A stretch of 32,000 nucleotides of DNA. Origin: Promethearchaeota archaeon (GTDB taxonomy: Archaea; Asgardarchaeota; Thorarchaeia; Thorarchaeales; Thorarchaeaceae). Below are positions 4,457-26,378 of the stretch, piece by piece (position 1 is the stretch's first letter; each line of letters opens with the position of its first letter). The translations under genes were made by a program, and so were the position numbers. The notes under the pieces are model-generated. The model did not search any database and had not been told where the DNA came from. It saw only the letters and a program-made list of their open reading frames with translations. Where the stretch lies: the NCBI GenBank assembly GCA_027031765.1, contig JALVPN010000077.1, forward strand, positions 8,191-40,190. The letters run 5' to 3'.

Positions 4457-5122
4457 GTGATAGCCCTTCGACTGAAGGCACCAGAGAAAATCCTTGAGGC
4501 GCTGGAGGGACACGAGAAGATAGTGCTCTTTGGGGACTCCGGGTGTGCCCAGCTGTGTGATGTGGGCGGACTGCTCCAGCTCGAGGACATGGAGGACTTC
4601 CTGACAAGGAACGGGAAGACCGTCCTCGGTGCTGTGTTCGTCGAGGGTGGCATCTGCAATGGCCCTGTCTTCAGGAGTACGGTGCAGGAGCAACGGGCAG
4701 TGATAGACAGCGCCGACGCACTGCTGGTACAGGCCTGTGGTGTCGCAGTACAGACCATTGTAGAACACATCCCGGAGAAGGAGGCCTTCCCTGCGGCTGA
4801 CTCGATGTTCCTCGGGGTTTCAAGGGGGCGTGGGACACACTCCGAGCTCTGCGCGATGTGCGGGGACTGCATCCTCCACCTGACCGGCGGGATATGCCCA
4901 CTGGCCCGCTGTGCGAAGGGGATACTCAACGGCCCCTGCGGTGGCTCCATGAACGGCAAGTGCGAGAGGGATGAGGACACTGACTGCGCATGGCAGCTCA
5001 TCTACGACAGGCTGCGGGCACTGGGAAAGCTCGACAACATCCGGAAGGTGTGGGAGATGAAGGACTGGAGGAGCTCACATGGGCCGCGGGTCATCTCGCA
5101 CCATGGAGGCGCAATAGCCTAA
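4457..5122 (+). CDS. metV: MetV-type Fe-S/Zn partner of methylenetetrahydrofolate reductase (MTHFR C-terminal-like domain)
   Basis: Cys pattern CAMCGDC..TGGICP..RCAK..LNGPCGG..GKCE...DCAW; GGAGGT ribosome-binding site before GTG; immediately upstream of metF. Confidence 0.85.
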   Translation: MIALRLKAPEKILEALEGHEKIVLFGDSGCAQLCDVGGLLQLEDMEDFLTRNGKTVLGAVFVEGGICNGPVFRSTVQEQRAVIDSADALLVQACGVAVQTIVEHIPEKEAFPAADSMFLGVSRGRGTHSELCAMCGDCILHLTGGICPLARCAKGILNGPCGGSMNGKCERDEDTDCAWQLIYDRLRALGKLDNIRKVWEMKDWRSSHGPRVISHHGGAIA

Positions 5123-5170
5123 AGATAATAAGGGGTCTCAGCCGGTCGAGTCCAGAAACACGAGGAGAGG

Positions 5171-6103
5171 ATAACACTCGGTAGCGGAACACGGCTGCAA
5201 CAGTCACTGGAAAGAGAAGGCCTGACCATCACCGGGGAAATCGTACCCCCCCGCGGTGCCAGCCCGAAGGCCCTGCTTGAGAAGGCACGGGCGGTCGCTG
5301 CGGACTGTGTCGCCATCAACATCACGGACAACATACGCGGGAACCCAGCAATGAGCAGCATTGCAGCCAGCCACCTGATATGTGACGTGGGTGCCGAACC
5401 AATACTCCAACTGTCGACACGCGACAGGAACCGCATACTGCTTGAGAGCGAGCTGTATGGCGCCCATGCGCTTGGCATCAGGAACGTCCTCTTTGTGACT
5501 GGCGACCACACGCTGCTCGGCACCCATCCGCATGCAAAGATGGTCTATGACCTCGACTCGATACAGGCCCTCCAGCTGGCCTCGGAGCTCATGCATGGCA
5601 GGGACCTGGCGGGAAAGGAGCTCGATGGTACACCGTCGTTCTATCTGGGCTCCACCTTCAACCCGTACGCAGACCCCATGGAGCTCCATGCCTGGCGGGT
5701 CGAGAAGAAGCGGGATGCCGGGGCACAGTTCTTCCAGACGCAGGCAGTATACGATGTCGGGCGGTTCAGAGACTTCATGGCACAGATACGGGGCCTCGGA
5801 GTGTACGTGCTCGCCGGGATATACGTCCTGAGAGGGCCGAAGACCGCGAGGTTCATGGACGAGCGCGTGCCGGGGATATACATCCCAGAGGAGATAATTG
5901 AACGGCTCGAGAAGGCTGGGGAGGGCCTGAGTGGCAAGGAGGCCCGGGCCCGCAGACGGGAGGAGGGCATAGCGATAGCCCTTGAGACCACAAGGGAGGT
6001 GATGAGGGTGCCGGGGGTGCACGGTATTGACCTGATGGGGACGGGCTGGGAGCCACACATCACACGCTTCATCGAATCTGCAAGCGGACAGCAGGAGGGA
6101 TAG
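5171..6103 (+). CDS. metF: Methylenetetrahydrofolate reductase, MetVF type; probable non-canonical (ATA) start
   Basis: Motifs TGDH..GTHP.AK.V.DLDS, EKK..AGAQFFQTQ.VYD. The conserved N-terminal GEIVPPRG and AINITDN lie upstream of the first ATG (5351), so the true start is further 5'. Start coordinate uncertain. Confidence 0.85.
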   Translation: MTLGSGTRLQQSLEREGLTITGEIVPPRGASPKALLEKARAVAADCVAINITDNIRGNPAMSSIAASHLICDVGAEPILQLSTRDRNRILLESELYGAHALGIRNVLFVTGDHTLLGTHPHAKMVYDLDSIQALQLASELMHGRDLAGKELDGTPSFYLGSTFNPYADPMELHAWRVEKKRDAGAQFFQTQAVYDVGRFRDFMAQIRGLGVYVLAGIYVLRGPKTARFMDERVPGIYIPEEIIERLEKAGEGLSGKEARARRREEGIAIALETTREVMRVPGVHGIDLMGTGWEPHITRFIESASGQQEG

Positions 6104-6107
6104 GAGG

Positions 6108-7025
6108 TTGTTCGTGTTCAAGAAGGAGCAACAGGTAATAGAGATTGGAGGCGTGAGCGTAGGCGGGCAGCCCGGGGAGCACCCCACCGTACTGATAGGT
6201 GGCATGTTCTTCAAGGGCCAGCCCATCGTCAAGAACACAAAGCAGGGGATATTCGACGAGGAGATGGCCCGTGAGTGGGTCGACCTTGCCAACGACATGG
6301 TGATCCGCACAGGACACCCGCTCATCATACAGGTGTACGGCCGCACCGAGACCGCCATGGAGCGTCACATAGGCTGGCTCGCAGAGAACTTCGACGGGCC
6401 CTTCATGTTCGAGTCGACGAACGCAAAGGCGCGGGTGAGAGGGATTGAGTACTGCAACGAGACCGGCCTCCATGACAGGGCAATCTACAACTCGGTCAAC
6501 CTGTCGATGAAGGACGATGAGAAACAGGTCCTGTCCAACAGCCGCATTGACTCCGCAGTTGTCCTTGGCTGGTCGCCACGCGCCACGAGCCTTGAGGAAC
6601 GGATGGAAACAGTAGGGGCAATGATTACGGAGGCCCGTGAGATGGGGCTCCAGCGGCTGCTCGTGGACCCTGCAACTCTGCCCGTGGGCGCAGGGTACGG
6701 ACTCGAACTGCGCACTATGATTGCGATAAAGTCACAGCACGGTCTGCCGACCTGTCTGGGCCCCCACAATGCGCCCTCGGCGTGGCAGTTCATCAAGCAG
6801 CCCGGCCTTGACGACGAGCCGGCACACCTCTCGGCAGTGGTCGCGGCAACGGTGGCGGCTCAGCTGTTCGCCACAGATGCGGTCATGTATGGCTCGATGG
6901 CACGGACGAGGGAGGCCTTCATTGCGGTTGCCCTGATAGGGAATGCACTCGCAGCCACTGCGGCCGAGGCATCCCATGCACTCGGGGTGGACAGGCAGCT
7001 CTTTGAACCGCCCACATCGTTCTGA
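6108..7025 (+). CDS. mtrH: MtrH-family pterin methyltransferase, divergent paralog 1
   Basis: MFVFKKEQQVIEIGGV..GGQPGEHPTVL, AIYNSVN, GPHNAPSAW; TTG start. Confidence 0.85.
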   Translation: MFVFKKEQQVIEIGGVSVGGQPGEHPTVLIGGMFFKGQPIVKNTKQGIFDEEMAREWVDLANDMVIRTGHPLIIQVYGRTETAMERHIGWLAENFDGPFMFESTNAKARVRGIEYCNETGLHDRAIYNSVNLSMKDDEKQVLSNSRIDSAVVLGWSPRATSLEERMETVGAMITEAREMGLQRLLVDPATLPVGAGYGLELRTMIAIKSQHGLPTCLGPHNAPSAWQFIKQPGLDDEPAHLSAVVAATVAAQLFATDAVMYGSMARTREAFIAVALIGNALAATAAEASHALGVDRQLFEPPTSF

Positions 7026-7048
7026 TATCTGGCAGGTGGTGGTAGACG

Positions 7049-7741
7049 GTGGGGCAGAGTGCTGACAGGCAGTGGCCGCCGGTGCCAGGCGACTTCATTG
7101 TGGGCGACCCGGGACACCCGGTGGCCATATGCACGCTCGGTAAGAAGATTGATGTTGACTGTGAGTACGCCATAATCGGGACGTGCAAGACCGAGAACAT
7201 AGGGATAGAGAGGGTCATTGTGAACATAGTCTCGAACCCAAGGGTCAGGTACCTGATACTCGCAGGCCCAGAGGTGCCGGGTCACAGGACGGGACAGTCC
7301 CTCAAGAGCCTGTATGAGAACGGGGTCGATAGCAAGACCCGGCGGATTGTGGGTGCGGAGGGGGCGATACCGTTCATTGAGAACGTGCCCCTTGAGGCGG
7401 TCGAGCGGTTCCGTCAGCAGGTACAGCTCGTCAACATGCTGAACATCACCGACCCGTCGAGGATTGCGGACACCGCTGCAGAGCTCGCACGCAAAGACCC
7501 CGGCGAGTTCCCGGACGGACCCATGTGGGTGGACTTTGGCACGCACCAGGGTGCCACCCGCGTCCTCACTCCGGGCGGTGCGGTTGCCATTGTCCCGGAG
7601 CTCGGTATTGCGCTCGACCCGTGGACGTCGCTGGTGTCATCACGGGACGCCATGGTGATAGTCTCAGTGCACCCATCAACCGTGGTCGCAGAGTTGCAGG
7701 AACAGGACGGTGGACACGTGATTGTTGTGAGGGAGGTATGA
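7049..7741 (+). CDS. mtrA: MtrA-family corrinoid protein, soluble, with an MtrB-like C-terminal extension
   Basis: CKTENIGIERVIVNIVSNP..RYLIL.G.EVPGH.TGQ...NG....I.GA.GAIPFIEN, with the Co-ligand His in the GH motif retained. No hydrophobic membrane anchor seen. Confidence 0.9.
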   Translation: MGQSADRQWPPVPGDFIVGDPGHPVAICTLGKKIDVDCEYAIIGTCKTENIGIERVIVNIVSNPRVRYLILAGPEVPGHRTGQSLKSLYENGVDSKTRRIVGAEGAIPFIENVPLEAVERFRQQVQLVNMLNITDPSRIADTAAELARKDPGEFPDGPMWVDFGTHQGATRVLTPGGAVAIVPELGIALDPWTSLVSSRDAMVIVSVHPSTVVAELQEQDGGHVIVVREV

Positions 7742-7747
7742 CAGACA

Positions 7748-8683
7748 GTGTTCGTGTTCGAACGTGAGCAGCAGATCTTTGACATCGGTGGTGTCACGGT
7801 CGGTGGCACTCCGGGAGAGAACCCGACCGTCCTTGCCGGGACGATATTCTACTCCGGTGACAAGACCGTCCGCGACGCCCGTACGGGCGAGTTCGATGCG
7901 GCGGAGGCGGAGAGGCTGGTCACGACACAGGACGAGCTGTCAGACATGACGGGCAACCCGGCCCTCGTCCAGGTGTTTGCACAGTCGCCGCGTGCTGTGG
8001 AGAGGTACATCGACTTTGTGAGCGAGGTCACTGATGCGCCGTTCCTGATAGACTCCACAGACCCTGAGACACGGGTCGCGGGGCTCCGTCATGCGGAGGA
8101 GGTGGGGCTGCTCGACAGGGCGGTGTACAACTCCGTCAACATCTCAATGACCGAGGACGAACGGATGGCCCTCTCCGAGATGGGACAGCTGTGTGCGATA
8201 GTCCTTGCTTTCAACCCCCATGACGCGACGATTGCAGGGCGCAGGGCCGTCCTCGAGTCAGGGACGCCGGAGATGGGAGAGGGGCTGCTTGAGACCTGTG
8301 AGAAGGTGGGCATCAACAGGCCACTCATAGACACAGCAATGACCTCCCTCGGGGCCGGGGCGGGGCCCGCCGTGGCATTCACCCTCGTTGCAAAGAGCCT
8401 CTATGGCTATCCCACCGGGTGCGGTATACACAATGCCGTGTCGTCGTGGCCATGGCTGCTGGGACTGAAGCGACACGACAAAGAGGCATACCGCACCTGT
8501 GATGTCGCGTCCAACGTCATCGTACAGCTGATGGGCGGTGACTTTGTCCTCTACGGGCCCATAAAGAATGCCAGGCTCGTGTTCCCTGTGGCTGCAATGG
8601 CAGACGCGCTCGCGGCCGAGTGCGTGAGCATGGAGCTCGGTGTCAGTCCGGCCGATGGGCACCCGTTCAGGCGGCTGGTATAG
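7748..8683 (+). CDS. mtrH: MtrH-family pterin methyltransferase, canonical-like paralog 2
   Basis: GGTPGENPTVLAGTIFY, PFLIDST, RAVYNSVN, GCGIHNAVSSW, GDFVLYGPI.NA. Confidence 0.92.
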   Translation: MFVFEREQQIFDIGGVTVGGTPGENPTVLAGTIFYSGDKTVRDARTGEFDAAEAERLVTTQDELSDMTGNPALVQVFAQSPRAVERYIDFVSEVTDAPFLIDSTDPETRVAGLRHAEEVGLLDRAVYNSVNISMTEDERMALSEMGQLCAIVLAFNPHDATIAGRRAVLESGTPEMGEGLLETCEKVGINRPLIDTAMTSLGAGAGPAVAFTLVAKSLYGYPTGCGIHNAVSSWPWLLGLKRHDKEAYRTCDVASNVIVQLMGGDFVLYGPIKNARLVFPVAAMADALAAECVSMELGVSPADGHPFRRLV

Positions 8684-8698
8684 GACGGGTGTAGCAGT

Positions 8699-10108
8699 AT
8701 GCCCACAAGGCCCACATTTGTGCGCCCGCCACGCATGGGCACGCTGTCACTCAGGAAGGGGCCGTTCTATACGGTGGCCTCTGTAGAACTCGGTAATACC
8801 ACCACCAAGTGTGTGGTAGTGACGACCGACCTCAGGACAGCGCGCATGTACATGCTGGGAAAGCTCGTGCGTCTGACGCGTGAGGCAAGACCACCGCGGG
8901 AGGGGGAGCTGGTCTTTGGGAGGACGCTCACTGGCACACCGCTCACACGGGAGTCCGTGGCAGAGCTGGTCGCCGAGACCCTCACGGGAGCTGTAAGGCA
9001 GGTGAGGCTGGACATTGAGCGCGACCTCCACTTCGTCGTCCGGTCCACGGGCGTGACCGCAGGGTTCGCCACACCGTCAGAGGTCGGCGAGATGGTCAGG
9101 GCCCTTGCCCAGGGCTGTCTGCAGGCCGGGATCCCGCCACGGAAGATGACAGCATCAATCTCACTCGACAGGGTCCCACCAGGGCTCCGGCGCTACAGCC
9201 TCCTTGACAGGGTCTACTTTGATGGGGCGGTGGCCGGGACGCGTCCCCCGGCGGCAACGGAAATCGTAGCAAATGAAATGGAGGGGGAGCTGGTCACTGC
9301 CGGACTGAAGGGTGCCGCAAAGAACACGCAGGTCGACTTCAGGAACCCTGTCATGACCCTGGACTTCGGCACCACACTGGCCGGACGCGTGACTGACGAG
9401 TCGTACCCCTATGCAGATACCATTGGCTCGTTTGCGGGGCTTGGTGGGGCGATACCGGACGCCCTCGTCCGTGGTGCAGGCCTTGCAGACCCGGTCACTG
9501 GTTGCGTCCTTGATGTCGAGGCCCCGAAACGGTACAGCGTGGAGGTGGGCGAGTGGCTCGAAAAAGTGCACTCGCTTGTGGATGTGCGGACAGTCCCAGC
9601 TGGTACCACCAGGTTCGGCACGGTGCCCGTAGACACCAGGGCAGCGGACGAGTCAGGGGTCGTGCTGATAGGCGTCGACGCTGGGAGGAACGGGTCTGCC
9701 CTGTCGGAGCTGGAGAGACTGGGCGCGGAGGTCTACGAGGCGGGCGGACTGGGACTGCTGATGGGCCTTGTCGACCGGGTGCAGGTACAGACAGTGCAGA
9801 GGCTCGTGAGCACCGCGGAGGAGGAGGGCATCGTGCTCCCCCGGACGGCACTTGGCCTGACAGGAAGGGGGATTACGACTGGCACGAAGCCGCGACTGGT
9901 CACAAAGTACCTGACCACTGCGAGCGGCGAGCCCTGGACAGAGTCGCATGTCCTGCTCATGGTAGAGGACGGGCTTGCCCTCGGAGCTGCGGTAGCGGCC
10001 CGCTGCATGAACTCCATGGGGACTCCCAAGCACCCGATAGGTGGCCGTCAGGGTGACGGGTGCGTGCTGGCCGCGCGGCGCGAGGCACAGAAGGGCCGTA
10101 CTGGATGA
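8699..10108 (+). CDS. Methanogenesis marker protein 14-like (DUF2114), predicted ASKHA/actin-like ATPase fold
   Basis: YTVASVELGNTTTKC, VFGRTL.G..LTRESVAELV, FVVRSTGVTAGF, ANEMEGEL.TAG.K, DFRNPV.TLDFGTTLAGR, GLGGAIPDAL. Confidence 0.85.
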   Translation: MPTRPTFVRPPRMGTLSLRKGPFYTVASVELGNTTTKCVVVTTDLRTARMYMLGKLVRLTREARPPREGELVFGRTLTGTPLTRESVAELVAETLTGAVRQVRLDIERDLHFVVRSTGVTAGFATPSEVGEMVRALAQGCLQAGIPPRKMTASISLDRVPPGLRRYSLLDRVYFDGAVAGTRPPAATEIVANEMEGELVTAGLKGAAKNTQVDFRNPVMTLDFGTTLAGRVTDESYPYADTIGSFAGLGGAIPDALVRGAGLADPVTGCVLDVEAPKRYSVEVGEWLEKVHSLVDVRTVPAGTTRFGTVPVDTRAADESGVVLIGVDAGRNGSALSELERLGAEVYEAGGLGLLMGLVDRVQVQTVQRLVSTAEEEGIVLPRTALGLTGRGITTGTKPRLVTKYLTTASGEPWTESHVLLMVEDGLALGAAVAARCMNSMGTPKHPIGGRQGDGCVLAARREAQKGRTG

Positions 10109-10174: not shown

Positions 10175-10948
10175 GTGCTTGTCATCCCCATCAGGACCAG
10201 GGTCATCAGACCCGACGACAACATAGTGGATGTGATACTCGACGGCCTTGCCAGGGCTTGCCACGAGCTCCGTGAAGGGGACATCCTAGGGATTGCTGAA
10301 ACACCACTGGGGACGACGGAGGGGCGGGTGATTCGCCTGTCAGACGTAGTTGTGAGTGACAGGGCACGAGACCTTGCACAACGCTACGACATGGTACCGG
10401 AGGTCGCGCAGCTCGTACTGGACGAGGCCGACGAGGTCCTCGGAGGTATCCCACACGTGCTCCTCACAATCAAGAACAACACACTGATGGCCAATGCCGG
10501 GGTCGACAAGTCGAATGTGCCACCGGGCTACGCATCACTGTTGCCCGAAGACCCGGCAGCCAGTGCAGCACGGATACGGGAGGAGGTGGCCAGGCGCCTC
10601 GGCATAGGAGTGGGCGTAATCGTGATAGACAGCCGTACGCAGCCGCTGCGGCTAGGCAACGTAGGGATGGCCCTTGCTGTGGCGGGGTTCCGGCCCGTGG
10701 TCGACGAGCGTGGCAGGACAGACCTCTTCGGGAACGTCCTGCGCGTGACGCGACGTGCTGTTGCTGACAACCTGGCCTCTGCGTGCACTGCGGTGATGGG
10801 TGAGGCCGACGAGGCAGTCCCAGCGGCACTGATAAGGGATGCGCCCGTCGAGTACACGGACACTGTCCACGACTCGTCAGAGATGTGGATTTCACCCGAG
10901 GAGTGCATGTACATGGCAATCTTTGAGCAGTGGAGACGCGGGATGTGA
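10175..10948 (+). CDS. cofE: Coenzyme F420-0:L-glutamate ligase
   Basis: IPIRTRVIRPDDNIV, ANAGVDKSN, DS..QPLRLG.VG.A, D.RG..DLFG..L.VT, ADNLASA...VMGEA.E..P. Confidence 0.88.
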   Translation: MLVIPIRTRVIRPDDNIVDVILDGLARACHELREGDILGIAETPLGTTEGRVIRLSDVVVSDRARDLAQRYDMVPEVAQLVLDEADEVLGGIPHVLLTIKNNTLMANAGVDKSNVPPGYASLLPEDPAASAARIREEVARRLGIGVGVIVIDSRTQPLRLGNVGMALAVAGFRPVVDERGRTDLFGNVLRVTRRAVADNLASACTAVMGEADEAVPAALIRDAPVEYTDTVHDSSEMWISPEECMYMAIFEQWRRGM

Positions 10949-11063: not shown

Positions 11064-12404
11064 GTGGGAAGACCAATAGTCCTCTTTGATGTCGCGTCGG
11101 CAGGTGCATCCGGGGACATGTTCCTGTCAGCACTGATAGACCTGATTGGGGACGACGAGGCCATACTCCGAGTCGCAGCAAGCATGCTGATCTACGACCC
11201 GACGCTACGGGTAAACGTCACACCTGTCACAGTGGGGGACACTGAGGGCAAGAGGCTCGATATCACCCTAGACACAGGGGTCAGGTTCGAGCCGCAAGCA
11301 ATGCATGAGGTGCTCAAAGAGGTCGCAACCGAGCTTGAGCTCTCAGAACACGGCCTCGAGACCGCAGAGCGGATGCTGGACATACTGTTCACCGCCGAGA
11401 GCAAGGCACATGACACGCCGGTGGATGAGCTGCACCTCCACGAGGTCGGCTCCATAGACACGGTTCTTGACGTCGTTGGGGTAGTGTACCTCCTTGAGAA
11501 GGCTGGTCTCCTCGGTGCAAAGTTCATCTCCACTCATGTGGCAATTGGCCAGGGCAGCATCGAGACCGAACACGGCGCGTTCGAGGTGCCAGTGCCAGCC
11601 GTTGCGGAAATCCTTGTTGCACATGACATCCCATTCCACAGGAGCACAGCCCAGACCGAGACCCTGACCCCGACAGGGGCCGCTATACTGGCGGCGCTTG
11701 CGGAGGACTACGTCGACTCGACTGAGGGCATCGAGTTGGAACGTTCCGGGGTGGGTTTCGGAACTCGCGACCTGGGCGAAACGCCGAACGCGATGCACAT
11801 ACACATCTGTCGCGGGACGGCACCAGCACGAGAGGCCGCCGAGATGACACGGGAAGCAGAGGCGGAAGGAGCAAAAGAGGCCGCGGCACCAGTTGAGGCC
11901 CCAGAGGCCGACCGGAGGCTTGAGACGTTGACGGGTTGGGACACTGACGAAGTGGTAGTCCTCGAAACGAACGTTGACGATGTCGATGGCGAGACCATGG
12001 GTACGCTCTTCGACGCACTGCTGGACACACATGGTGTGTTTGATGTGGTGGCAATCCCGGCATATGGGAAGAAGAACCGTCCGTGCCTGGTCGTAAAGGT
12101 GATTGCTTCGGCTCGGGCCCTCGCGGAGGTCCCCGACATCCTAGTGAAACACCTGGGGACAATTGGGGTGCGGTATACCACGTGGCGCCGCGTGAAAGCG
12201 ACCCGCGAAACCGTCGTCTGCAGGATTGATGTGGAGGGCAAGGAGTACATGGTGCGGGTGAAGGTCTCACGGAGTGCGGACGGCAGTGTGGTGAATGTCA
12301 AGCCAGAGGCCGATGATGTGAGAAAGGTCGCACGTGAGACCGGCATCCCGACGCGGTTCCTGCGGCCAATGATCATACTACAGGCGAAGGCGGTCACCGA
12401 GTAG
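11064..12404 (+). CDS. larC: LarC-family nickel insertase (fused N- and C-terminal halves)
   Basis: GASGDMFLSAL, HLHEVGSIDTVLDVVG, ETLTPTGAAIL, LETNVDDVDGE, KKNRP, TIGVR, VKPE.DD. Confidence 0.9.
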   Translation: MGRPIVLFDVASAGASGDMFLSALIDLIGDDEAILRVAASMLIYDPTLRVNVTPVTVGDTEGKRLDITLDTGVRFEPQAMHEVLKEVATELELSEHGLETAERMLDILFTAESKAHDTPVDELHLHEVGSIDTVLDVVGVVYLLEKAGLLGAKFISTHVAIGQGSIETEHGAFEVPVPAVAEILVAHDIPFHRSTAQTETLTPTGAAILAALAEDYVDSTEGIELERSGVGFGTRDLGETPNAMHIHICRGTAPAREAAEMTREAEAEGAKEAAAPVEAPEADRRLETLTGWDTDEVVVLETNVDDVDGETMGTLFDALLDTHGVFDVVAIPAYGKKNRPCLVVKVIASARALAEVPDILVKHLGTIGVRYTTWRRVKATRETVVCRIDVEGKEYMVRVKVSRSADGSVVNVKPEADDVRKVARETGIPTRFLRPMIILQAKAVTE

Positions 12405-15208: not shown

Positions 15209-15278
15209 CGGCCATATGTTACAGGCACACAGTCCCACTCATACGAATACGAGTCTGGCCGTCCAAAGATTCAGTGGG

Positions 15279-15854
15279 GTGCTCAAAATAGTAACTGCGC
15301 TGTTCAAAGTAATCCTCATGGGTGATGGCTCCGTCGGAAAGACAAGCCTGCGACGGGTGTACATGGGCGAGGGGTTCAAGGCATCGTACATGATCACAAT
15401 AGGGGCCGACTTTGCCGTCAAGAAGATGACCCTAGAAGGAGGCCACGATGTCAGCATTCAGATCTGGGACCTGGCAGGCCAAGAACACTTCAAGAGCGTC
15501 CGCTCCACGTTCTACCGTGGTGCCCAGGGTGCACTCGCAGTGTACTCCACAGTGGAACGGAGCTCCTTCGAGAACATTGAGAACTGGGTGGAAGAGTGCT
15601 GGAGCAACGCAGGCAAGAAGATTCCAGTCGTGTTGATTGGGAACAAGATTGACCTCCGGGAACAGTTCATAGACAACCCCGTAATGCGCCAGACCATTGT
15701 CACTACTGAGGAGGGACAGGCCCTAGCCGACAGAATTGCCCAGCGGGGCGTCCACGCGTCCTTCATAGAGACCTCTGCCAAGACCGGGAAGAACGTCGAG
15801 GCTGCATTCCTCGAACTGATAATCAGGATCTTGGAGGCCGGCGGGCTCTCATAG
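15279..15854 (+). CDS. Rab-like small GTPase 1
   Basis: G1 GDGSVGKTS, switch I TIGADF, G3 WDLAGQE, YRGA, G4 NKID, G5 ETSAKTG; no C-terminal prenylation Cys. Start is GTG 15279 or ATA 15288. Confidence 0.93.
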   Translation: MLKIVTALFKVILMGDGSVGKTSLRRVYMGEGFKASYMITIGADFAVKKMTLEGGHDVSIQIWDLAGQEHFKSVRSTFYRGAQGALAVYSTVERSSFENIENWVEECWSNAGKKIPVVLIGNKIDLREQFIDNPVMRQTIVTTEEGQALADRIAQRGVHASFIETSAKTGKNVEAAFLELIIRILEAGGLS

Positions 15855-17216: not shown

Positions 17217-17421
17217 GTTATGGCACAACACAGCGGTGCAGTGGCACCACACTGTTTTGTCGGCCGGGGGACTGAGGACGTAGAGGGCGCTGTGGAGCAG
17301 CAGCAGTACAAACAACATGAGAGTTGACACCCGGACTGACGACAGTGTTGCAACTAGCAACTTTTTAGGGGAATACCGTCATAGCGAGCTACGACCCCCC
17401 CCCCACCATGAGGCGCATCAT

Positions 17422-18552
17422 ATGAGCGAGCACGAACTCACACTGTTCTTGAGACCAGAGACCATCAAGCCGCCTGCCGAGCACGGCTCCGAGCTCACAC
17501 GGAGGATTGCACTGAACCATGCAGGCCGATTGATTGCTGTGGGAATGCAGGACAAGAGCATCCGGCTATACGATGCAACCAACTTCGAGGAGATCCAGAA
17601 GCTCCAGGACAACTTCCTGAGCACGGCTCTGGCATTCAGTCCACGAGGGGACACTGTGGCATCTGGTGGTGTCGACAGGGTGGTAAAGATATGGGACATA
17701 AGGACGGGCGAGGTGCTCACGACACTGGAAGGGCACACATACCCGATTCTCGGGCTCTCGTTCTCACCTGACGGTAGCAGGCTCCTCTCAGCCAGCGGAG
17801 ACACGACGCTCATAGTCTGGGATCTCAACAGTGGCACCGAGTCCAGCAGGCTCAGGGGCCACAAGTTATACGTCATGTCCTGCGACTGGCATCCAGAGGA
17901 CGACCTCGTCGTGTCGGGGGCTGTCGACGCCACCATTGCACTGTGGGACCCGAACACTGGCAAGATGTTGGGCCAGTACGGCGAACACAGGACCGCGGTC
18001 CATGTGGTCAGGTTCTCCCCACAGGGTGACAGGCTCCTGTCCACATCATCGGACATGACGTGCAAGGTCTGGGACGTGGGCGGGGAGAGCGTCAGGCCCG
18101 TGCACACCCTTCAGGGGCACACAGCAGAGGTGAGGACGGCCACATGGAGCAGTGACGGAGAGCTCATCGCCTCAGGGTCCAGTGAGAAGGAGCTCTTCCT
18201 CTGGTCACTGGACTCACTGCAGGTGGAGGGGGAGGCACGTACAGCTGGGGAGATTGACGGGATAGAGTGGTTCCCTAGCAAGAAGGAGTTCGTCACAGCC
18301 GACAGTTCGGGGGCAATTACCCGCTGGCGCGTACAGGAGCTGTCCATTGTCCTGGCGCCATTCCGCGACCTGCTGGCAGAAATCCAGGCAGACAGCACAG
18401 GGGCGCACCGTGAGGAGCACATCCGCCAGTTTGACGACCTCGTGCAGCGCTACGGTGAGGAGACCCTGAAGGACAAGAGGGTGTTCTATCTGATGTGGCA
18501 GTGCAAGCGTGCACTGGGGCTCCTCAAGGGCAGACCAGCCGGTACACGGTGA
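17422..18552 (+). CDS. WD40 beta-propeller protein (about 7 blades) with a short helical C-terminal domain
   Basis: Repeated GH...FSPxG..L.S.S.D..V.IWD units (VVKIWD, LIVWD, IALWD, CKVWD, LFLWS, ITRWR); GAGGCG ribosome-binding site 6 nt before ATG 17422. Confidence 0.92.
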   Translation: MSEHELTLFLRPETIKPPAEHGSELTRRIALNHAGRLIAVGMQDKSIRLYDATNFEEIQKLQDNFLSTALAFSPRGDTVASGGVDRVVKIWDIRTGEVLTTLEGHTYPILGLSFSPDGSRLLSASGDTTLIVWDLNSGTESSRLRGHKLYVMSCDWHPEDDLVVSGAVDATIALWDPNTGKMLGQYGEHRTAVHVVRFSPQGDRLLSTSSDMTCKVWDVGGESVRPVHTLQGHTAEVRTATWSSDGELIASGSSEKELFLWSLDSLQVEGEARTAGEIDGIEWFPSKKEFVTADSSGAITRWRVQELSIVLAPFRDLLAEIQADSTGAHREEHIRQFDDLVQRYGEETLKDKRVFYLMWQCKRALGLLKGRPAGTR

Positions 18553-21997: not shown

Positions 21998-24298
21998 TTG
22001 AGGAAACTGATTGTCGCGACATTACGGGAGATACTCTGTGCATCAATGTCACTCGATGATGGACTGTCAGCAATCCAGAACATATCCATAGGGCACACGG
22101 AGGAGTCGGACATCCCATATGACATTGCAAGGGCAATAGAGGAGATACTCCTCCGTAGACCGGGACTGGCAAGTGCCAAGTTGATGGAGTTGACAGTACG
22201 CCTCTCCTCGGACCCGGACCGGACGCTCCCAAAGATGTTGATGCTCCTTGACACGAGGTCCAACACTGCATATAGGAGGGGCGAGTGCGAGATACTGCCA
22301 GATATCCAAGCCCTACCACAGCTGCTGGACATCCTTGGCGAGCTGTCCAGCGCAGTCATGGACGGGCTGTCCCTGAACCTCAGACCACTGATCCCGTTCC
22401 TTGCAGACGAGATGCTCATGACGCTGACATCCATAGTCGACCGGGGACACCCCGCGTCGACGCGGCTTGCAGTCAGGGAGACCCACCACCTCGCGAGCAT
22501 CCTAGTAGACAGGGGCTTCTACGAGTGTGCGGAGCTGCTCTTGGAGGCGCTCGTACGGGTCGCGGCCGAGGTGCAGGACGAGAGGCTCTACTTTGAGGTC
22601 GCCATCGACCATGCCGTCGTACTGACCGAGACCGGTCTCTACAAGCAGGCACGGACTATCCTCGAAGACCTTGAGAGGAGGGTCAAGGAGAACAGTGACG
22701 TGGCCGCACAGGCGGCAGTGGCCCTGCAGATTGCAGTGAACGAGACCCGTGATGACACTGTGGACCATACCACTGCAAGGGCGTCTGCGGACAGGGCGGT
22801 CGAGCTGCACCGGCTGGCAGTGGAACAGGGGCGCATGGCGCCTGACGAACTGGCCGTTGCCGAGCTGACGGTGGGGGTGAACATCTTGGCCAACGGCTGG
22901 CGGGAGGCCGTCCCACAGGCAATGGAGCGTCTGGAGGCCGGGCTTGCGGTCTACGAGGAGATGGACTCGCTCACCCAAAGACAGGCCTCCCACTGTTTCA
23001 AGGTCCTGGCCGGACTGGGGTTTGCGCACGGCCTGCTGAGTGACCACGACAATGTGACTCTGAGCATCAGGTACCTGAGACGTGCTGAGGCACTGTTGAG
23101 GGAGTCTGTGAAACCAGAGGAGGACATCACAGAGAAGATTGCTGCATGTGAACACTGCATTGGCTGGGTGTGTCTGTGTTCGGAGTCCGACGAACACTGG
23201 GAGCTGGGCATCGACGCCTTCAGAAAGGCCACCGAGTTGCGTCGTGCCCTTGTCGGTGAGGGGCGGCTGTCATGGCTCGCCCTACTCGGTAGCGAGCTTG
23301 GCCATGCACTGTCGTTGATACGGACTGCAGGAAGGATGGACGAAGGGCTCCAAGAACGCCTCGTAAGGATTATGCACCAGTATACCCTGTTGTTCCCGAC
23401 CGATCTGCGGGCCTTCGAAGAGGCTGCCATTGCTACCTACAACATTGTGTGGCTAGCCTCACGACATGGGGCGGAGCTGTCACAGGAGTTGCTCCGACTC
23501 CTTGAGGACATAGACAGGATGTTGACCGATGCGACGCCTGTGGAGGACTCTGTCTTCGTGCGCGGGATCTCCCTACTGATGCCATACCTGAAGTCGGACT
23601 GGAGAGCACTGCGGTACAGGGCCGAGGCCCTGCTCCATGCTGGCGGCCCACTCAGGGACGTGGTACTGCTGATGAGCACGCTGGCAAAGATGCGCATCGC
23701 TCTAGACTACATGACCCTAGAGAGCATCACGCAGGTGATAACGGGTCATGACGGACAACTGGACGGCACCGACGAGCTAATGGCGAGGTACTGGGACGGA
23801 CAGGTCGTACTTGCAAGGGCAGTGGCAGCATTCTACGGTAACAAGGACTACACTACACTCGCCCAAGGGCTGTACGACGCGGCCGTGATGCTCAGAGGCG
23901 TACTACATGCAACGACCGACTTTGAAGAGGCTGCCGAGTTTGTAAGGGCCACGGCCGGCTCGCTAGCGGGTGTACTCCTGAGGTTCGCAACGGCCCTGGA
24001 GAAGACCTACGGCGCGAGAATAGAGAAGAGCACCCCCGACATCACCCCAGCAGACCTTGAGGACACGGGCTTCAACTTCATCCTGTCAGAGGACTGGATT
24101 GGACTGCTGAAGATAACCAACGCGTATCTTGAGATGGTGGAGAGAGCAGAGCTGGCCCAGGCAATGCCATACCTCAACGCAGTCTTCTCAAACATTGCAA
24201 GTGCACTACGGATGATGGACCGCATTGCAATGGTCGACAGGCGCATGCTGAACAGGCTCGGCGAGGAAATGAACAGGCGGTACTATCTCAGGCGCTGA
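21998..24298 (+). CDS. Large alpha-helical TPR-like/solenoid hypothetical protein (766 aa)
   Basis: Long ORF with TPR-like helical pairs (GFYECAELLLEAL, GLYKQARTILEDL, LEAGLAVYEEM, ACEHCIGWV...AFRKATELRR); no catalytic motif recognised. Confidence 0.75.
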   Translation: MRKLIVATLREILCASMSLDDGLSAIQNISIGHTEESDIPYDIARAIEEILLRRPGLASAKLMELTVRLSSDPDRTLPKMLMLLDTRSNTAYRRGECEILPDIQALPQLLDILGELSSAVMDGLSLNLRPLIPFLADEMLMTLTSIVDRGHPASTRLAVRETHHLASILVDRGFYECAELLLEALVRVAAEVQDERLYFEVAIDHAVVLTETGLYKQARTILEDLERRVKENSDVAAQAAVALQIAVNETRDDTVDHTTARASADRAVELHRLAVEQGRMAPDELAVAELTVGVNILANGWREAVPQAMERLEAGLAVYEEMDSLTQRQASHCFKVLAGLGFAHGLLSDHDNVTLSIRYLRRAEALLRESVKPEEDITEKIAACEHCIGWVCLCSESDEHWELGIDAFRKATELRRALVGEGRLSWLALLGSELGHALSLIRTAGRMDEGLQERLVRIMHQYTLLFPTDLRAFEEAAIATYNIVWLASRHGAELSQELLRLLEDIDRMLTDATPVEDSVFVRGISLLMPYLKSDWRALRYRAEALLHAGGPLRDVVLLMSTLAKMRIALDYMTLESITQVITGHDGQLDGTDELMARYWDGQVVLARAVAAFYGNKDYTTLAQGLYDAAVMLRGVLHATTDFEEAAEFVRATAGSLAGVLLRFATALEKTYGARIEKSTPDITPADLEDTGFNFILSEDWIGLLKITNAYLEMVERAELAQAMPYLNAVFSNIASALRMMDRIAMVDRRMLNRLGEEMNRRYYLRR

Positions 24299-26378
24299 CC
24301 CCATGGGGTACGGGCCTGTAGTCTGCCGACCGGGCCCCCCAAGTGGCCCACCCCGATGTCGATGTGCGGATCTCGGCCGCCAGGCCAAAGGACTCCCGCA
24401 CCGGTATCTCGGCGACGATCCGGTACAGCGTCCGCTCCGCATCGATAGCGAGCACCTCACCCTTTCTGCGTGCGAGGACGGATGTTAGTACTCCGACGTA
24501 CTCTTCCGGCGTGCTAATCTCAAGGTGCGCCCATGGCTCCATGAGCACCGGGTCACCGGTCACTATACTGGCCCTTGCCGCATCAATCAGTGGTTGGGTC
24601 ACCTCACGCCACGAGGTCTCAGGGCCCTGGTACCGGATGTCAGCCCTGCTGATGACGAGCGCCAGACGACGCATCCTCTCACCGGCCACAGGCCCATAGC
24701 GGATCACATTGCGGAACGCCTCACGCACCCACTCTGCAGCCTCAGACTCCGGGTCGACCGAGCCGGAAACGTCGAGCATGGTGCATGCAGTGTGTGGCTC
24801 ATGGTCAAGCAACGTGCCAGCAGTGTCCGGCCCTGACCCGGTGGGTGCTAACAGGGCCCGCACGGCAAACTCACTCACCTCCCCCCCACCGGCCACACAT
24901 ACCTCGCCGTCATGGGACAGCTGCTCCTTTAGGAGGACCATCGGCTTGCCAAGGACCACGTGGACACCCTGACGGGCGAGCTTCTCCACCGTGACCTCTA
25001 TGTGCAGCTCGCCAGCGCCAGAGAGCAACATCTCACCGGTCTCTGGGTTGACCTCGAACTGCAGTGCCGGGTCCGTCTTCACAAACTCACGTATTGGCCC
25101 CTCAATCCGCCCCAGGTCAGACAGCACCTTCGGCTCAATCGTGAACGTTACGACCGGTTCAGTGGGGTACCGCAGCTCGCTGATCGGGCACATATCATCG
25201 ACTGAGGGGTCGACAAGCGTGTCACCGGTTGCAATCCCCGTAACGCCCGTAAGGAAGGCCAGGTTGCCCGCAGGTACGGCAGGGAGTGACACCCGCGTCC
25301 GGGACATCCTGATACCGACCTGCAGGGTCTTGTCGGTACGGCCCGTGCGCACCACCCGGAGCGGGCGTCCACGTTCCAGAGTGCCTGAGAACACGCGGGC
25401 CACGGCCACAACCCCTGCGTGCCGGTCGGGTCTGGTCTCGCCGATGAGGAGGACACATGGTGCTGTAGGGTCGCATGACAACAGCCCCCTGCCGACATCA
25501 GACGACTGGTCACCGTCCCAAAAAGCAGGCACACGATAGCGCTGCGCCACCGTAGGGGGAGGGACCGTACGCACGAGGGCATTGAGGGCGGCACGGGCCA
25601 CCGGGTACTTGTCAGCAAGGGACATGTGCTGTCCTGTGGCGTATGCACCCACGACCTCGCTGACAATCTCCATGAAGGCGGTGGCAAGAGAGGCACGGTC
25701 GTGCTTACCACCAGCATGCCGGACGAGGTCTTCAAGTCCGACGCCCCACTTGTGCAGGGCCGACCCGATTACGAGCGACCCACGCAGGAATGAGACCTCC
25801 CACTGTCGGAGCAGGCTGTCGTCCAAGTACTTGCCAAGCATGGCGTTGAACTCACGGACGACCCTGTCGATTGAGGCAGCAACGCGTGGCGCGTCAAGAT
25901 GCTTCTCCCTACACAGACGGTCCACCTTGTTCACCATGAGCACCGGACGGACAAGCTCCTCCATGGCCTGCCGCGTAACGGTCTCCGTCTGCACCATGAT
26001 GCCCTCAATCACATCTACCACGATGAGTGCGCCGTCTGTCAACCGGAGGCTGCGGGTGACATGGCTCGAGAAGTCGATGTGACCGGGTGTGTCCACCAAG
26101 TGCACAAGGTGTTCTCTGCCCTCAAACTCATGCACCAGAGTGATGCCAGAGGCCTTTATTGTGATGCCCCGCTCCTGTTCGATACGGTCGTAGTCAAGGA
26201 GCCGTGCGGATGCTGCTACCTCCTGTGACAGCAGGCCGGAGGCTGCTATGAGCGAGTCAGTCAGGGTCGTCTTCCCATGGTCGATATGAGCAATCACAGT
26301 GCAGTTGCGGATCCGGTCGTGCTGTGATACAAGACCTGCCACTCTCTCGGTGACGAACTTCTTGTAGAGGTGCGACAC
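24288..26378 (-). CDS. Archaeal EF-2 paralog (aEF-2p-like) lacking the diphthamide His motif
   Basis: AHIDHGKTT, RGITI, DTPGHIDF, NKVD, GAGELHIE, LMEP, PVRESFG; domain IV loop reads DIRYQGPETSW with no HRG. Confidence 0.88.
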   Translation of the reverse strand: MSHLYKKFVTERVAGLVSQHDRIRNCTVIAHIDHGKTTLTDSLIAASGLLSQEVAASARLLDYDRIEQERGITIKASGITLVHEFEGREHLVHLVDTPGHIDFSSHVTRSLRLTDGALIVVDVIEGIMVQTETVTRQAMEELVRPVLMVNKVDRLCREKHLDAPRVAASIDRVVREFNAMLGKYLDDSLLRQWEVSFLRGSLVIGSALHKWGVGLEDLVRHAGGKHDRASLATAFMEIVSEVVGAYATGQHMSLADKYPVARAALNALVRTVPPPTVAQRYRVPAFWDGDQSSDVGRGLLSCDPTAPCVLLIGETRPDRHAGVVAVARVFSGTLERGRPLRVVRTGRTDKTLQVGIRMSRTRVSLPAVPAGNLAFLTGVTGIATGDTLVDPSVDDMCPISELRYPTEPVVTFTIEPKVLSDLGRIEGPIREFVKTDPALQFEVNPETGEMLLSGAGELHIEVTVEKLARQGVHVVLGKPMVLLKEQLSHDGEVCVAGGGEVSEFAVRALLAPTGSGPDTAGTLLDHEPHTACTMLDVSGSVDPESEAAEWVREAFRNVIRYGPVAGERMRRLALVISRADIRYQGPETSWREVTQPLIDAARASIVTGDPVLMEPWAHLEISTPEEYVGVLTSVLARRKGEVLAIDAERTLYRIVAEIPVRESFGLAAEIRTSTSGWATWGARSADYRPVPHGVSA

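Follow-up and report, generated by a model that had tools for sequence, protein, structure and literature searches.

Known MtrAH systems

In Thorarchaeia, MtrA and MtrH together with the methanogenesis marker m26 (DUF2114) have already been reported, and the accessible parts of that study describe the role of MtrAH outside methanogens as unclear (Adam et al., 2022; PMC9635834). In the wider MtrH family, the positions that correspond to N128, D187, H220 and N221 of the diverged protein described below bind the pterin ring in both MtrH and MtgA (PMC12774963, PMC7154762), and Asp102 is essential in MtgA, where D102A abolishes activity (PMC7154762). In addition, Arg236 of MtgA binds the glutamate of folate. 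The MtrH-like MtoA is active with tetrahydrofolate (H4F) in vitro, although H4MPT is its presumed native acceptor (PMC8630106).

A conserved mtrH-mtrA-mtrH operon in Thorarchaeia

The window, that is, the whole stretch of 32,000 nucleotides analysed here, comes from a Thorarchaeia genome (95.3% complete, 1.4% contamination), and class-wide counts refer to 87 Thorarchaeia genomes. It carries an mtrH-mtrA-mtrH unit of three intact, co-oriented ORFs separated by 23 and 6 nt (Table 1), as the first-pass annotation of this DNA had described it: both outer ORFs belong to the MtrH family and the middle one to MtrA. This unit forms the centre of an operon conserved in Thorarchaeia, (metV)-metF-mtrH1-mtrA-mtrH2-marker 14-cofE, whose gene order appears again in about 35 Thorarchaeota genome loci, a recurrence which argues that the arrangement is not due to chance. 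Among metagenome loci, mtrA lies 3' of mtrH1 in 42/42, metF lies 5' of it in 32 of 33, and marker 14 follows in 27/27; of the related loci, only about one in two has metV at the 5' end. The conserved frame of metF reaches about 60 codons 5' of its first ATG (5351) and, together with the orthologs, points to an ATA behind a GAGGAGAGG site as the probable start. No linked substrate, transporter or partner gene was found at the operon across the loci compared, and a UroD-like protein of the host genome showed neither a homolog in those loci nor a link to the operon.

Table 1. Genes of the operon and the MtrB-like segment of MtrA, in window positions.
Feature	Position	Strand	Support
metV, small subunit of MetVF methylene-tetrahydrofolate reductase	4457..5122	+	PF12225 E=4e-35; synteny
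metF, methylene-pterin reductase (probable start)	5171..6103	+	PRK08645 MTHFR domain E=3.8e-53; orthologs; directly 5' of mtrH1
mtrH1, Thorarchaeia-specific MtrH paralog	6108..7025	+	305 aa; TTG start after GGAGG
mtrA, soluble corrinoid carrier	7049..7741	+	230 aa; PF04208 E=1.7e-56
Putative arm in the MtrA tail, resembling the MtrB N-terminus	7583..7675	+	Profile matches to MtrB
mtrH2, canonical methanogen-type MtrH	7748..8683	+	311 aa; TIGR01114 above cut-off
Methanogenesis marker 14 (DUF2114, m26)	8699..10108	+	TIGR03285 589 bits; PF09887
cofE-family gamma-glutamyl ligase (F420 or pterin glutamylation)	10175..10948	+	TIGR01916 above cut-off; conserved position

MtrE was found in none of the 87 genomes, the host included, and tblastn searches of the host genome with MtrB, MtrC, MtrD, MtrE, MtrF and MtrG from two methanogens gave no match. 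A full mtr operon elsewhere in that genome, which the first-pass annotation had named as a possible user of these subunits, was not found, and the MtrH/MtrA complement comprises only the two MtrH proteins (H1 and H2) and one MtrA. Furthermore, MtrA contains no transmembrane helix, the best 19-residue hydropathy in its tail being 1.38. Since mtrCDE was not found in the genome, MtrE is missing from all genomes of the class and MtrA lacks an anchor, the module is soluble and unable to pump, which bears out the earlier proposal of a cytoplasmic, non-energy-conserving complex. The gene set is real and family-wide, and represents what remains, without the membrane part, of the vitamin-B12-dependent methyl-transfer machinery of methanogens.

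The accessible parts of Adam et al. call MtrAH and m26 of Thorarchaeia remnants (Adam et al., 2022; PMC9635834). That the operon is decaying, with H1 as a redundant duplicate, is nevertheless highly improbable and largely refuted by conservation: all genes are intact, their order is fixed in 16 of 17 Thorarchaeia genera, and 27% of columns are at least 99% conserved in H1, against 23% in H2.

Two MtrH barrels with different pockets

MtrH2 is a canonical, methanogen-type MtrH. It scores 376 bits against TIGR01114 (cut-off 271), has all seven canonical pocket residues (T32, Q75, D102, N128, D195, H228 and N229), shares with its family a basic patch at 238/241/242 and nests among methanogen MtrH in the tree. 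MtrH1, which is 39% identical to it, scores 249 bits, below the same cut-off, and forms a separate Thorarchaeia clade. The contrast of a canonical second and a divergent first paralog, drawn by the first-pass annotation from six quoted motifs that are all present, holds in both profile scores and phylogeny, and the divergent paralog is not decaying.

Measured against the canonical pocket set (T32, Q75, D103, N129, D196, H229 and N230 in M. mazei numbering), H1 keeps five of seven residues, with T32G and D103E in 120/120 sequences. The pocket residues retained are Q75, N128, D187, H220, N221 and K/R230, and the pterin anchors among them (N128, D187, H220, N221) are kept in all 120. The fixed changes are T32G, D102E (codon 6411-6413), Y35F, H38Q and G216C. 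Changes in H1 cluster at the N8/C7 side and the benzoyl sandwich, and the residues that anchor the pyrimidine ring are retained. Of about 146 other rows of the family alignment, only 1 has Glu at position 102. In addition, the loop after β5 is 8 residues shorter, and R79 and R202 are invariant. The MtgA-type pocket (S32, D75, D102, Y35, H38, Y230) is not matched by H1, which has G32, Q75, E102, F35, Q38 and S224, scores 169 bits against NF047990 (cut-off 550) and lies outside the MtgA clade. A basic residue (K/R230) occupies the site of MtgA Arg236 in all H1 sequences; the additional Lys242/Lys243 patch, a proposed binding site for the longer tail of H4MPT, is missing from H1 and present in the H2 family. 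The closest folds to the H1 AF2 model, which is poor past residue 190 (pLDDT <50), are MtgA of Desulfitobacterium hafniense (6sj8) and MtoA of Methermicoccus shengliensis (8z9u).

The H1 clade has a stem of 1.31 substitutions/site followed by branches as short as those of H2, and 25 of its sites are constant but different, which argues that H1 was re-specialised. A degenerate MtrH clade elsewhere in the tree loses anchors (D102N, D187L/F/M, N221G), whereas H1 keeps D187 and N221; membership of H1 in that clade is ruled out by its retained β6 Asp and β7 Asn and by its different tree position. Furthermore, the family Gly at position 216 is replaced in H1 by an invariant Cys, accompanied by invariant His220, Glu102 and Asp187. 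Strand alternation suggests that Cys216 is probably buried, in the barrel's second layer, and no known Zn/thiol motif was found in the H1 sequence.

MtrA and its MtrB-like tail

His79 of MtrA (codon 7283-7285) is invariant in 30/30 sequences, aligns with 5laa and is the equivalent of the cobalt ligand His84 of methanogen MtrA. The tail of the protein comprises a flexible linker (165-172), an arm (179-209) with an invariant Pro183-Glu184, and a β-hairpin (212-229). It matches PF05440 (top match E=0.0035; 8/38 members) and the NCBIfam MtrB profile (E=0.016), and an hhalign comparison gave E=6e-4. When searched as a profile against the PDB, its top match was residues 6-26 of 8q3v_B (E=0.28), whereas a single-sequence phmmer search gave no match; the predicted model places β-strands in the arm. 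Judged by these profiles, the tail is a predicted homolog of the N-terminal arm with which MtrB docks MtrH dimers, and its arm is a putative docking site for an MtrH dimer. It is likely that the tail takes over the job of the MtrB arm, so that the corrinoid domain would be tethered by a flexible linker to the MtrH dimer, most simply an H1:H2 heterodimer, and could swing from one barrel to the other. An MtrB docking arm fused to MtrA would show how the Mtr pump shrank to a soluble enzyme. The first-pass annotation mentions neither this tail nor marker 14, both of which are informative.

The same assembly would also admit a structural role for H1. MtrH is dimeric, the MtrB arm lies at the dimer interface, and only one active site is thought to serve MtrA, which would leave the other free to diverge (PMC12774963). 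H1 may accordingly be a non-catalytic or regulatory partner within an H1:H2 heterodimer, contributing half of the surface on which the MtrA tail docks, with H2 alone loading and unloading MtrA and the methyl partner protein encoded elsewhere. This reading is unlikely, although it is the strongest of the alternatives considered. The change D102E falls on an essential residue, and tandem pairs of a degenerate and an intact MtrH occur in two other Thorarchaeia clusters (L076, L092). R211, which pairs with MtrB Glu9, is invariant in H1 (as R202) and missing in H2, and Glu184 of the tail is invariant; this argument is weak, because that Arg is likewise missing from the sister group of H2, where mtrB is a gene of its own. 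The pocket of H1 is moreover invariant down to its new residues G32, Q38 and E102, unlike that of the degenerate clade, and no other methyl-corrinoid partner (MtaC/MttC-type protein, CFeSP or MesA/MetE) was found in the host genome.

Possible roles of the operon in one-carbon metabolism

Both C1 branches assumed by the first-pass annotation are present in the host genome: an H4F branch (Fhs, FolD, FolP, MetVF, GcvT) and an H4MPT-type branch (Ftr, Mch, Mtd, Mer). CdhD/E, a MetE-type or MetH-type synthase and MtrE were not found there, so that neither methyl-pterin would have an outlet unless the two were joined. Across the class, Fhs and Mch are nearly universal (81/87 genomes each), and Mer is above cut-off in at least 41/87 and at E<=1e-60 in at least 50/87, both lower bounds since some matches are split. 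Thorarchaeia that apparently use outside methyl donors carry a separate, third MtrH copy, accompanied by a corrinoid protein of the classic type and a RACo activator.

The best explanation of the operon, with a probability of about 35%, is a soluble, non-pumping relay that moves methyl groups between folate, at H1, and a methanopterin-type carrier, at H2. H1 would exchange methyl groups between MtrA and tetrahydrofolate, the carrier of the adjacent MetF, and H2 between MtrA and the methanopterin-type carrier; these two assignments are the weak steps. The methyl ends of the C1 branches would thereby be joined without ion pumping (MetF <-> CH3-H4F <-> MtrA <-> CH3-H4MPT <-> Mer), in a direction that is not readable from sequence. 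Oxidised cobalt would be reactivated by marker 14, which also lies 3' of mtrH in methanogen loci. As a lead only, marker 14 may be an ATP-dependent reactivator or chaperone of the MtrA corrinoid; its nearest other clusters are those of EutA, at 0.83, likewise a lead. A search for 'DUF2114' in the main text of the literature returned no paper.

Several observations are consistent with a relay between the two pterins. The anchors of H1 are kept throughout, whereas the truly degenerate clade loses them, and its tree shape and constant-but-different sites indicate re-specialisation. The basic residue at the folate-glutamate site and the missing Lys patch, which the H2 family retains, are indirect signs of different carriers. 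In addition, metF is fixed beside H1, both C1 branches coexist with no other methyl sink found, Fhs and Mch are nearly universal, and the related soluble mtxXAH of ANME-2 adjoins purN-glyA-folD and a pterin-binding gene. Other observations stand against it. H1 has Glu at the position of the Asp102 essential in MtgA, and its Gln75 is that of Mtr-type barrels rather than the Asp75 of the MtgA/MtoA group. RFAP synthase (MptG) is above cut-off in 1/87 genomes and missing from the other 86, including the host, so H4MPT would need scavenging or a substitute. In the 4 genomes of genus g9 (83-93% complete), the operon is retained with no Ftr, no CdhD and no Mer above cut-off, and a methyl shuttle therefore cannot be its function there. 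Since MtoA takes H4F in vitro, with H4MPT as its presumed native acceptor, a single barrel could suffice in principle for the exchange, and mtxXAH is itself single-barrelled; two paralogs may thus be unneeded. To our knowledge, no enzyme system has been demonstrated that directly connects the C1 pools of folate and methanopterin at the level of the methyl group, and the relay, if true, would be one.

MetF normally serves methionine synthase. The operon may itself be an unrecognised methionine synthase of MetH-like logic, in which CH3-H4F is made by MetF, MtrA is methylated by H2, H1 hands the methyl group on to homocysteine, and marker 14 serves as the reactivator of the cobalt; we consider this slightly more doubtful than a structural H1. 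The methionine synthase domains PF01717 and PF02574 were found in 0/87 genomes, yet aspartate-semialdehyde homocysteine synthase occurs in 15 of them (7 genera), in an operon with asd and aspartate kinase at the loci examined, and the host genome encodes SAH hydrolase. For MesA, MtrA has been predicted to act as the methyl donor (PMC7857596). A synthase would also explain how the operon persists where MptG, Mer, Ftr or Cdh is missing. H1 has gained an invariant Cys216 and has invariant His220, Glu102 and Asp187. However, H1 retains all pterin anchors, lacks a known Zn/thiol motif, and its Cys216 is probably buried. PF01717 also gave no match in Methanosarcina acetivorans, so this search would miss synthases of the MesC type; a motif scan, which covered the host genome, found none. 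Neither aspartate kinase nor homocysteine synthase was found in the host genome, which may simply take up methionine, and homocysteine can also feed cysteine synthesis. E. coli metA, metB, metL and metH had no counterpart in the host genome, in an insensitive test in which E. coli MetF missed the local MetF too. If H1 methylates homocysteine, the operon would be a new, independently assembled cobalamin-dependent methionine synthase built from methanogenesis parts, filling a gap of a whole Asgard class.

Less probable again is that folate is the sole pterin carrier, with H2 performing the pterin half-reaction, H1 demethylating another donor or methylating another acceptor with a pterin- or purine-like ring, and MetF oxidising or supplying CH3-H4F. 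The missing MptG and nearly universal folate genes are consistent with it, as are the changes of H1 at the N8/C7 side and benzoyl sandwich with the pyrimidine-ring anchors intact. The accessible parts of Adam et al. likewise hypothesise that MtrAH funnels methyl groups into the Wood-Ljungdahl pathway (PMC9635834). Nevertheless, the operon has no linked gene for a candidate substrate, transporter or partner, and the Thorarchaeia that apparently use outside donors have a separate MtrH set. The operon offers a small, fully soluble setting in which to assay MtrAH and marker 14 without the membrane complex.

Comparison with known systems

The closest description is the 'canonical MtrAH' with m26 of Thorarchaeia, which concerns the same lineage and genes, likewise without other Mtr subunits and with m26 tied to Mtr; the accessible parts of that paper (Adam et al., 2022; PMC9635834) do not mention a diverged second MtrH, the fixed metF link, a tail like MtrB or cofE as a neighbour. 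With the methanogen Mtr complex, MtrA-H (PDB 9qts/9qtp, 8q3v; PMC12774963, PMC10998594), the operon shares a cobalt-His MtrA, a canonical MtrH (H2), an MtrB-type arm and marker 14 after mtrH. It differs in its second barrel and in the absence of MtrCDE, MtrF, MtrG and a membrane anchor, so neither a coenzyme M half-reaction nor Na+ pumping is expected; in place of the separate MtrB, F and G stalk, only the MtrB N-terminal arm is present, apparently fused to MtrA.

The mtxXAH system of Methanosarcinales and ANME-2 (PMC12978539) resembles the operon in combining an MtrH homolog with a soluble MtrA homolog that has a similar short tail, and it adjoins folate genes in the ANME-2 loci examined (L065-L069). 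In contrast to the operon, it has one barrel and mtxX, neither metF nor marker 14 was found in the examined loci, and its tail is shorter, without the Pro-Glu and the last hairpin. Identity of the operon with mtxXAH is ruled out by its neighbours metF and marker 14 and its two barrels. A 354-aa ORF after ANME-2 mtxAH, considered as a core methionine synthase, gave no such match and looks DHH-type.

MtgA (6sj8) and MtoA (8z9u) are, like H1, soluble members of the MtrH family, acting as corrinoid:pterin methyltransferases. Both carry Asp75 and Asp102 and act together with a classic corrinoid protein (MtgC/MtoC) and a first enzyme specific to the substrate, whereas H1 has Gln75 and Glu102 and stands beside MtrA. 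In MetH, two barrels are served by one swinging corrinoid together with a reactivator. The likeness to MetH is one of logic only, and that to MesA lies in MtrA as the predicted methyl donor (PMC7857596); neither is homologous to H1, a PF02007 protein without a PF02574 or PF01717 domain or Zn motifs. Finally, the MtrAH fusion of Atabeyarchaeia and Freyarchaeia (PMC11291895) is, like the operon, an Asgard, membrane-free combination of MtrA and MtrH, but it forms a single fused polypeptide of a distinct clade, in contrast to the two-paralog operon with metF and marker 14 described here.

A soluble operon and its conservation

The first-pass annotation had described an mtrH-mtrA-mtrH trio without mtrCDE at 6108-8683, and three ORFs separated by short intergenic gaps were indeed found there. 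This genome (GCA_027031765.1, 95.3% complete) contains these two MtrH and one MtrA and nothing further of either family. A genome-wide search for the membrane subunits, proposed as a check, recovered no MtrE and no trace of MtrB, MtrC, MtrD, MtrF or MtrG genes. Among 87 Thorarchaeia genomes, MtrH occurs in 84, MtrA in 78 and MtrE in none.

Coordinates of features in the window
Feature	Position	Strand	Remarks
mtrH1	6108-7025	+	ORF with ribosome-binding site
mtrA	7049-7741	+	ORF with ribosome-binding site
mtrH2	7748-8683	+	ORF with ribosome-binding site
larC	11064-12404		LarC1-LarC2 fusion, nickel insertion; retained downstream of cofE in almost every related locus
Ras-family small GTPase	15216-15854		typical Asgard eukaryotic-signature gene
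WD40 beta-propeller protein	17317-18552		typical Asgard eukaryotic-signature gene
766-aa ORF	21998-24298		no Pfam match; convergent with EF-2-like gene
EF-2-like gene	24288-26378	minus	696 aa

The conserved unit extends beyond this trio. The order metF-mtrH1-mtrA-mtrH2-marker 14-cofE-larC is constant across about 35 genome loci, and decay of the operon is very improbable. In metagenome loci, mtrA follows mtrH1 in 42/42, metF lies upstream in 32/33 and marker 14 downstream in 27/27; metV was found in about half of related loci. Methanogen loci, too, have marker 14 (DUF2114, m26) after mtrH, and an earlier paper already ties this marker to Mtr, Thorarchaeia included (PMC9635834). Outside its own family, the clusters closest to it are EutA reactivating factors, a lead only. 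No ATG, GTG or TTG lies upstream of 5351 in metF, though the conserved frame reaches about 60 codons further (5162-5351); an in-frame ATA at 5171, behind a strong ribosome-binding site, may be the start. The standard start is likewise missing at the expected place in two relatives (L044, L073).

An MtrB-like tail on MtrA

The corrinoid domain of MtrA aligns with solved MtrA structures, its His79 is invariant, and no membrane helix was found in the protein. The C-terminus consists of a flexible linker and a beta-rich tail with an invariant Pro183-Glu184. The top Pfam match of this tail was MtrB positions 2-33 (E=0.0035, 8/38 members), NCBIfam again returned MtrB, the top PDB match of the tail profile was MtrB residues 6-26 (E=0.28), and hhalign against MtrB gave E=6e-4. 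All four scores are individually weak, yet all point to MtrB, the family predicted in advance. In the M. mazei complex, a sheet of MtrB residues 1-23 binds the MtrH dimer interface, and a Glu9-Arg211 bridge joins the MtrB arm and MtrH (PMC12774963). The tail would thus tether the corrinoid protein to a dimer of MtrH. The counterpart of Arg211 is conserved without exception in H1, and H2 lacks it; this pattern is only weakly consistent with an H1:H2 heterodimer, because the sister group of H2 also lacks this Arg.

Several related arrangements were observed elsewhere. A hot-spring metagenome locus (L111:7001-11139), whose MtrH is sister to Thorarchaeia H2, carries mtrH-marker 14 facing mtrB-mtrA and two small ORFs, with no mtrCDE nearby. 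MtxA of ANME-2 ends in a short MtrB-like tail. Four Thorarchaeia genomes (L086:4825-5838, L087, L088, L089) encode a second MtrA-like gene with a fused N-terminal 4Fe-4S domain, and a glyoxalase-like gene comes after it.

A canonical and a diverged MtrH barrel

The two barrels share 39% identity, and the proposed contrast between a canonical and a diverged paralog held. H2 scores above the MtrH equivalog cut-off, has 7/7 residues of the M. mazei MtrH pocket and groups in the tree with MtrH of the methanogen type, whereas H1 falls below the cut-off and is monophyletic (support 100), its clade being resolved and its deeper position not. The H1 stem is long (1.31 substitutions per site), the branches beyond it are short, and the nearest relatives of H1 are all Ca. 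Thorarchaeota (56-72% identity). Across 120 H1 sequences, N128, D187, H220 and N221 are kept, Q75 is present in 99%, and G32, E102, Q38 and C216 are fixed. Asp102 is essential in MtgA (PMC7154762), and Glu occurs at this position in about 1/146 other MtrH family rows. Where MtgA has Arg236, H1 keeps a basic residue; extra lysines, proposed to contact the H4MPT tail (PMC12774963), are kept by the H2 family and missing in H1. Taken together, the sequence features suggest that the H1 pocket is re-shaped and active; they do not identify its ligand.

That H1 is a structural partner is a less likely alternative. Degenerate MtrH stands in tandem with an intact paralog in two other Thorarchaeia clusters, and H1 is unlike that degenerate clade, which has lost D187 and N221. 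These tandems (L076:3299-5143, L092:1211-3055), probably pseudo-enzyme heterodimers, adjoin a classic corrinoid protein, a RACo activator and a UroD-like gene; the degenerate clade also includes P0157, P0160 and P0214.

Possible methyl carriers of H1

The first-pass annotation had proposed that H1 and H2 prefer different carriers; H1 would thereby link the folate and methanopterin pools via MtrA, to which we assign a probability of roughly one in three. This genome encodes enzymes of both C1 branches (Ftr, Mch, Mtd and Mer; Fhs, FolD, FolP, GcvT and MetVF). Searches of it yielded no CdhD/E, no synthase of the MetE or MetH type and no corrinoid protein of the classic methylotrophic kind. With no other methyl sink found, both methyl-pterins would be dead ends unless linked by the Mtr module, and this is the strongest argument for the shuttle. 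Against it, only 1/87 Thorarchaeia has an RFAP synthase (MptG) match above cut-off, although Mch occurs in 81/87 and Ftr in 62/87, and the genus g9 keeps the operon with no Ftr or Cdh and no Mer above cut-off. Across the class, Mer is above cut-off in at least 41/87, some matches being split, and CdhD-family matches occur in 49/87. H4MPT synthesis is likewise reported incomplete in the cultured Asgard Prometheoarchaeum, so H4MPT uptake is possible. That folate is the sole pterin carrier and H1 serves another donor or acceptor is quite unlikely. MtoA is active with H4F in vitro (PMC8630106), and a single barrel may therefore suffice for pterin exchange. The ANME-2 mtxXAH module adjoins folate genes: purN, glyA, folD and a pterin-binding (FolP-like) gene lie within 3 kb after mtxX-mtxA-mtxH (L067:1845-10321, L069, L181, L182).

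Methyl transfer to homocysteine by H1 is unlikely. No PF01717 or PF02574 methionine synthase was found in the 87 genomes, by a search blind to MesC, yet homocysteine synthase (PF01837) occurs in 15, none with a recognised methionine synthase; SAH hydrolase is present in this genome, and MtrA is the predicted methyl donor for MesA (PMC7857596). H1, however, retains its pterin anchors and shows no known Zn motif, and the homocysteine operon is absent from this genome. Elsewhere this operon comprises homocysteine synthase, a UPF0280 protein, asd and aspartate kinase (L125:6753-11303, L126-L130).

Comparison with known systems

Altogether, the operon is a conserved, soluble, non-pumping Mtr derivative that combines an MtrA-MtrB-arm fusion with one canonical and one re-specialised MtrH, and from this architecture we infer a tethered two-barrel relay. 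MtrAH with m26 in Thorarchaeia is already described (PMC9635834); our literature search found no paper on the second MtrH paralog, the metF link or the MtrA tail. The module resembles the first half of Mtr in its working and is similar in this respect to the MtgA/MtoA systems, but it belongs to neither group.
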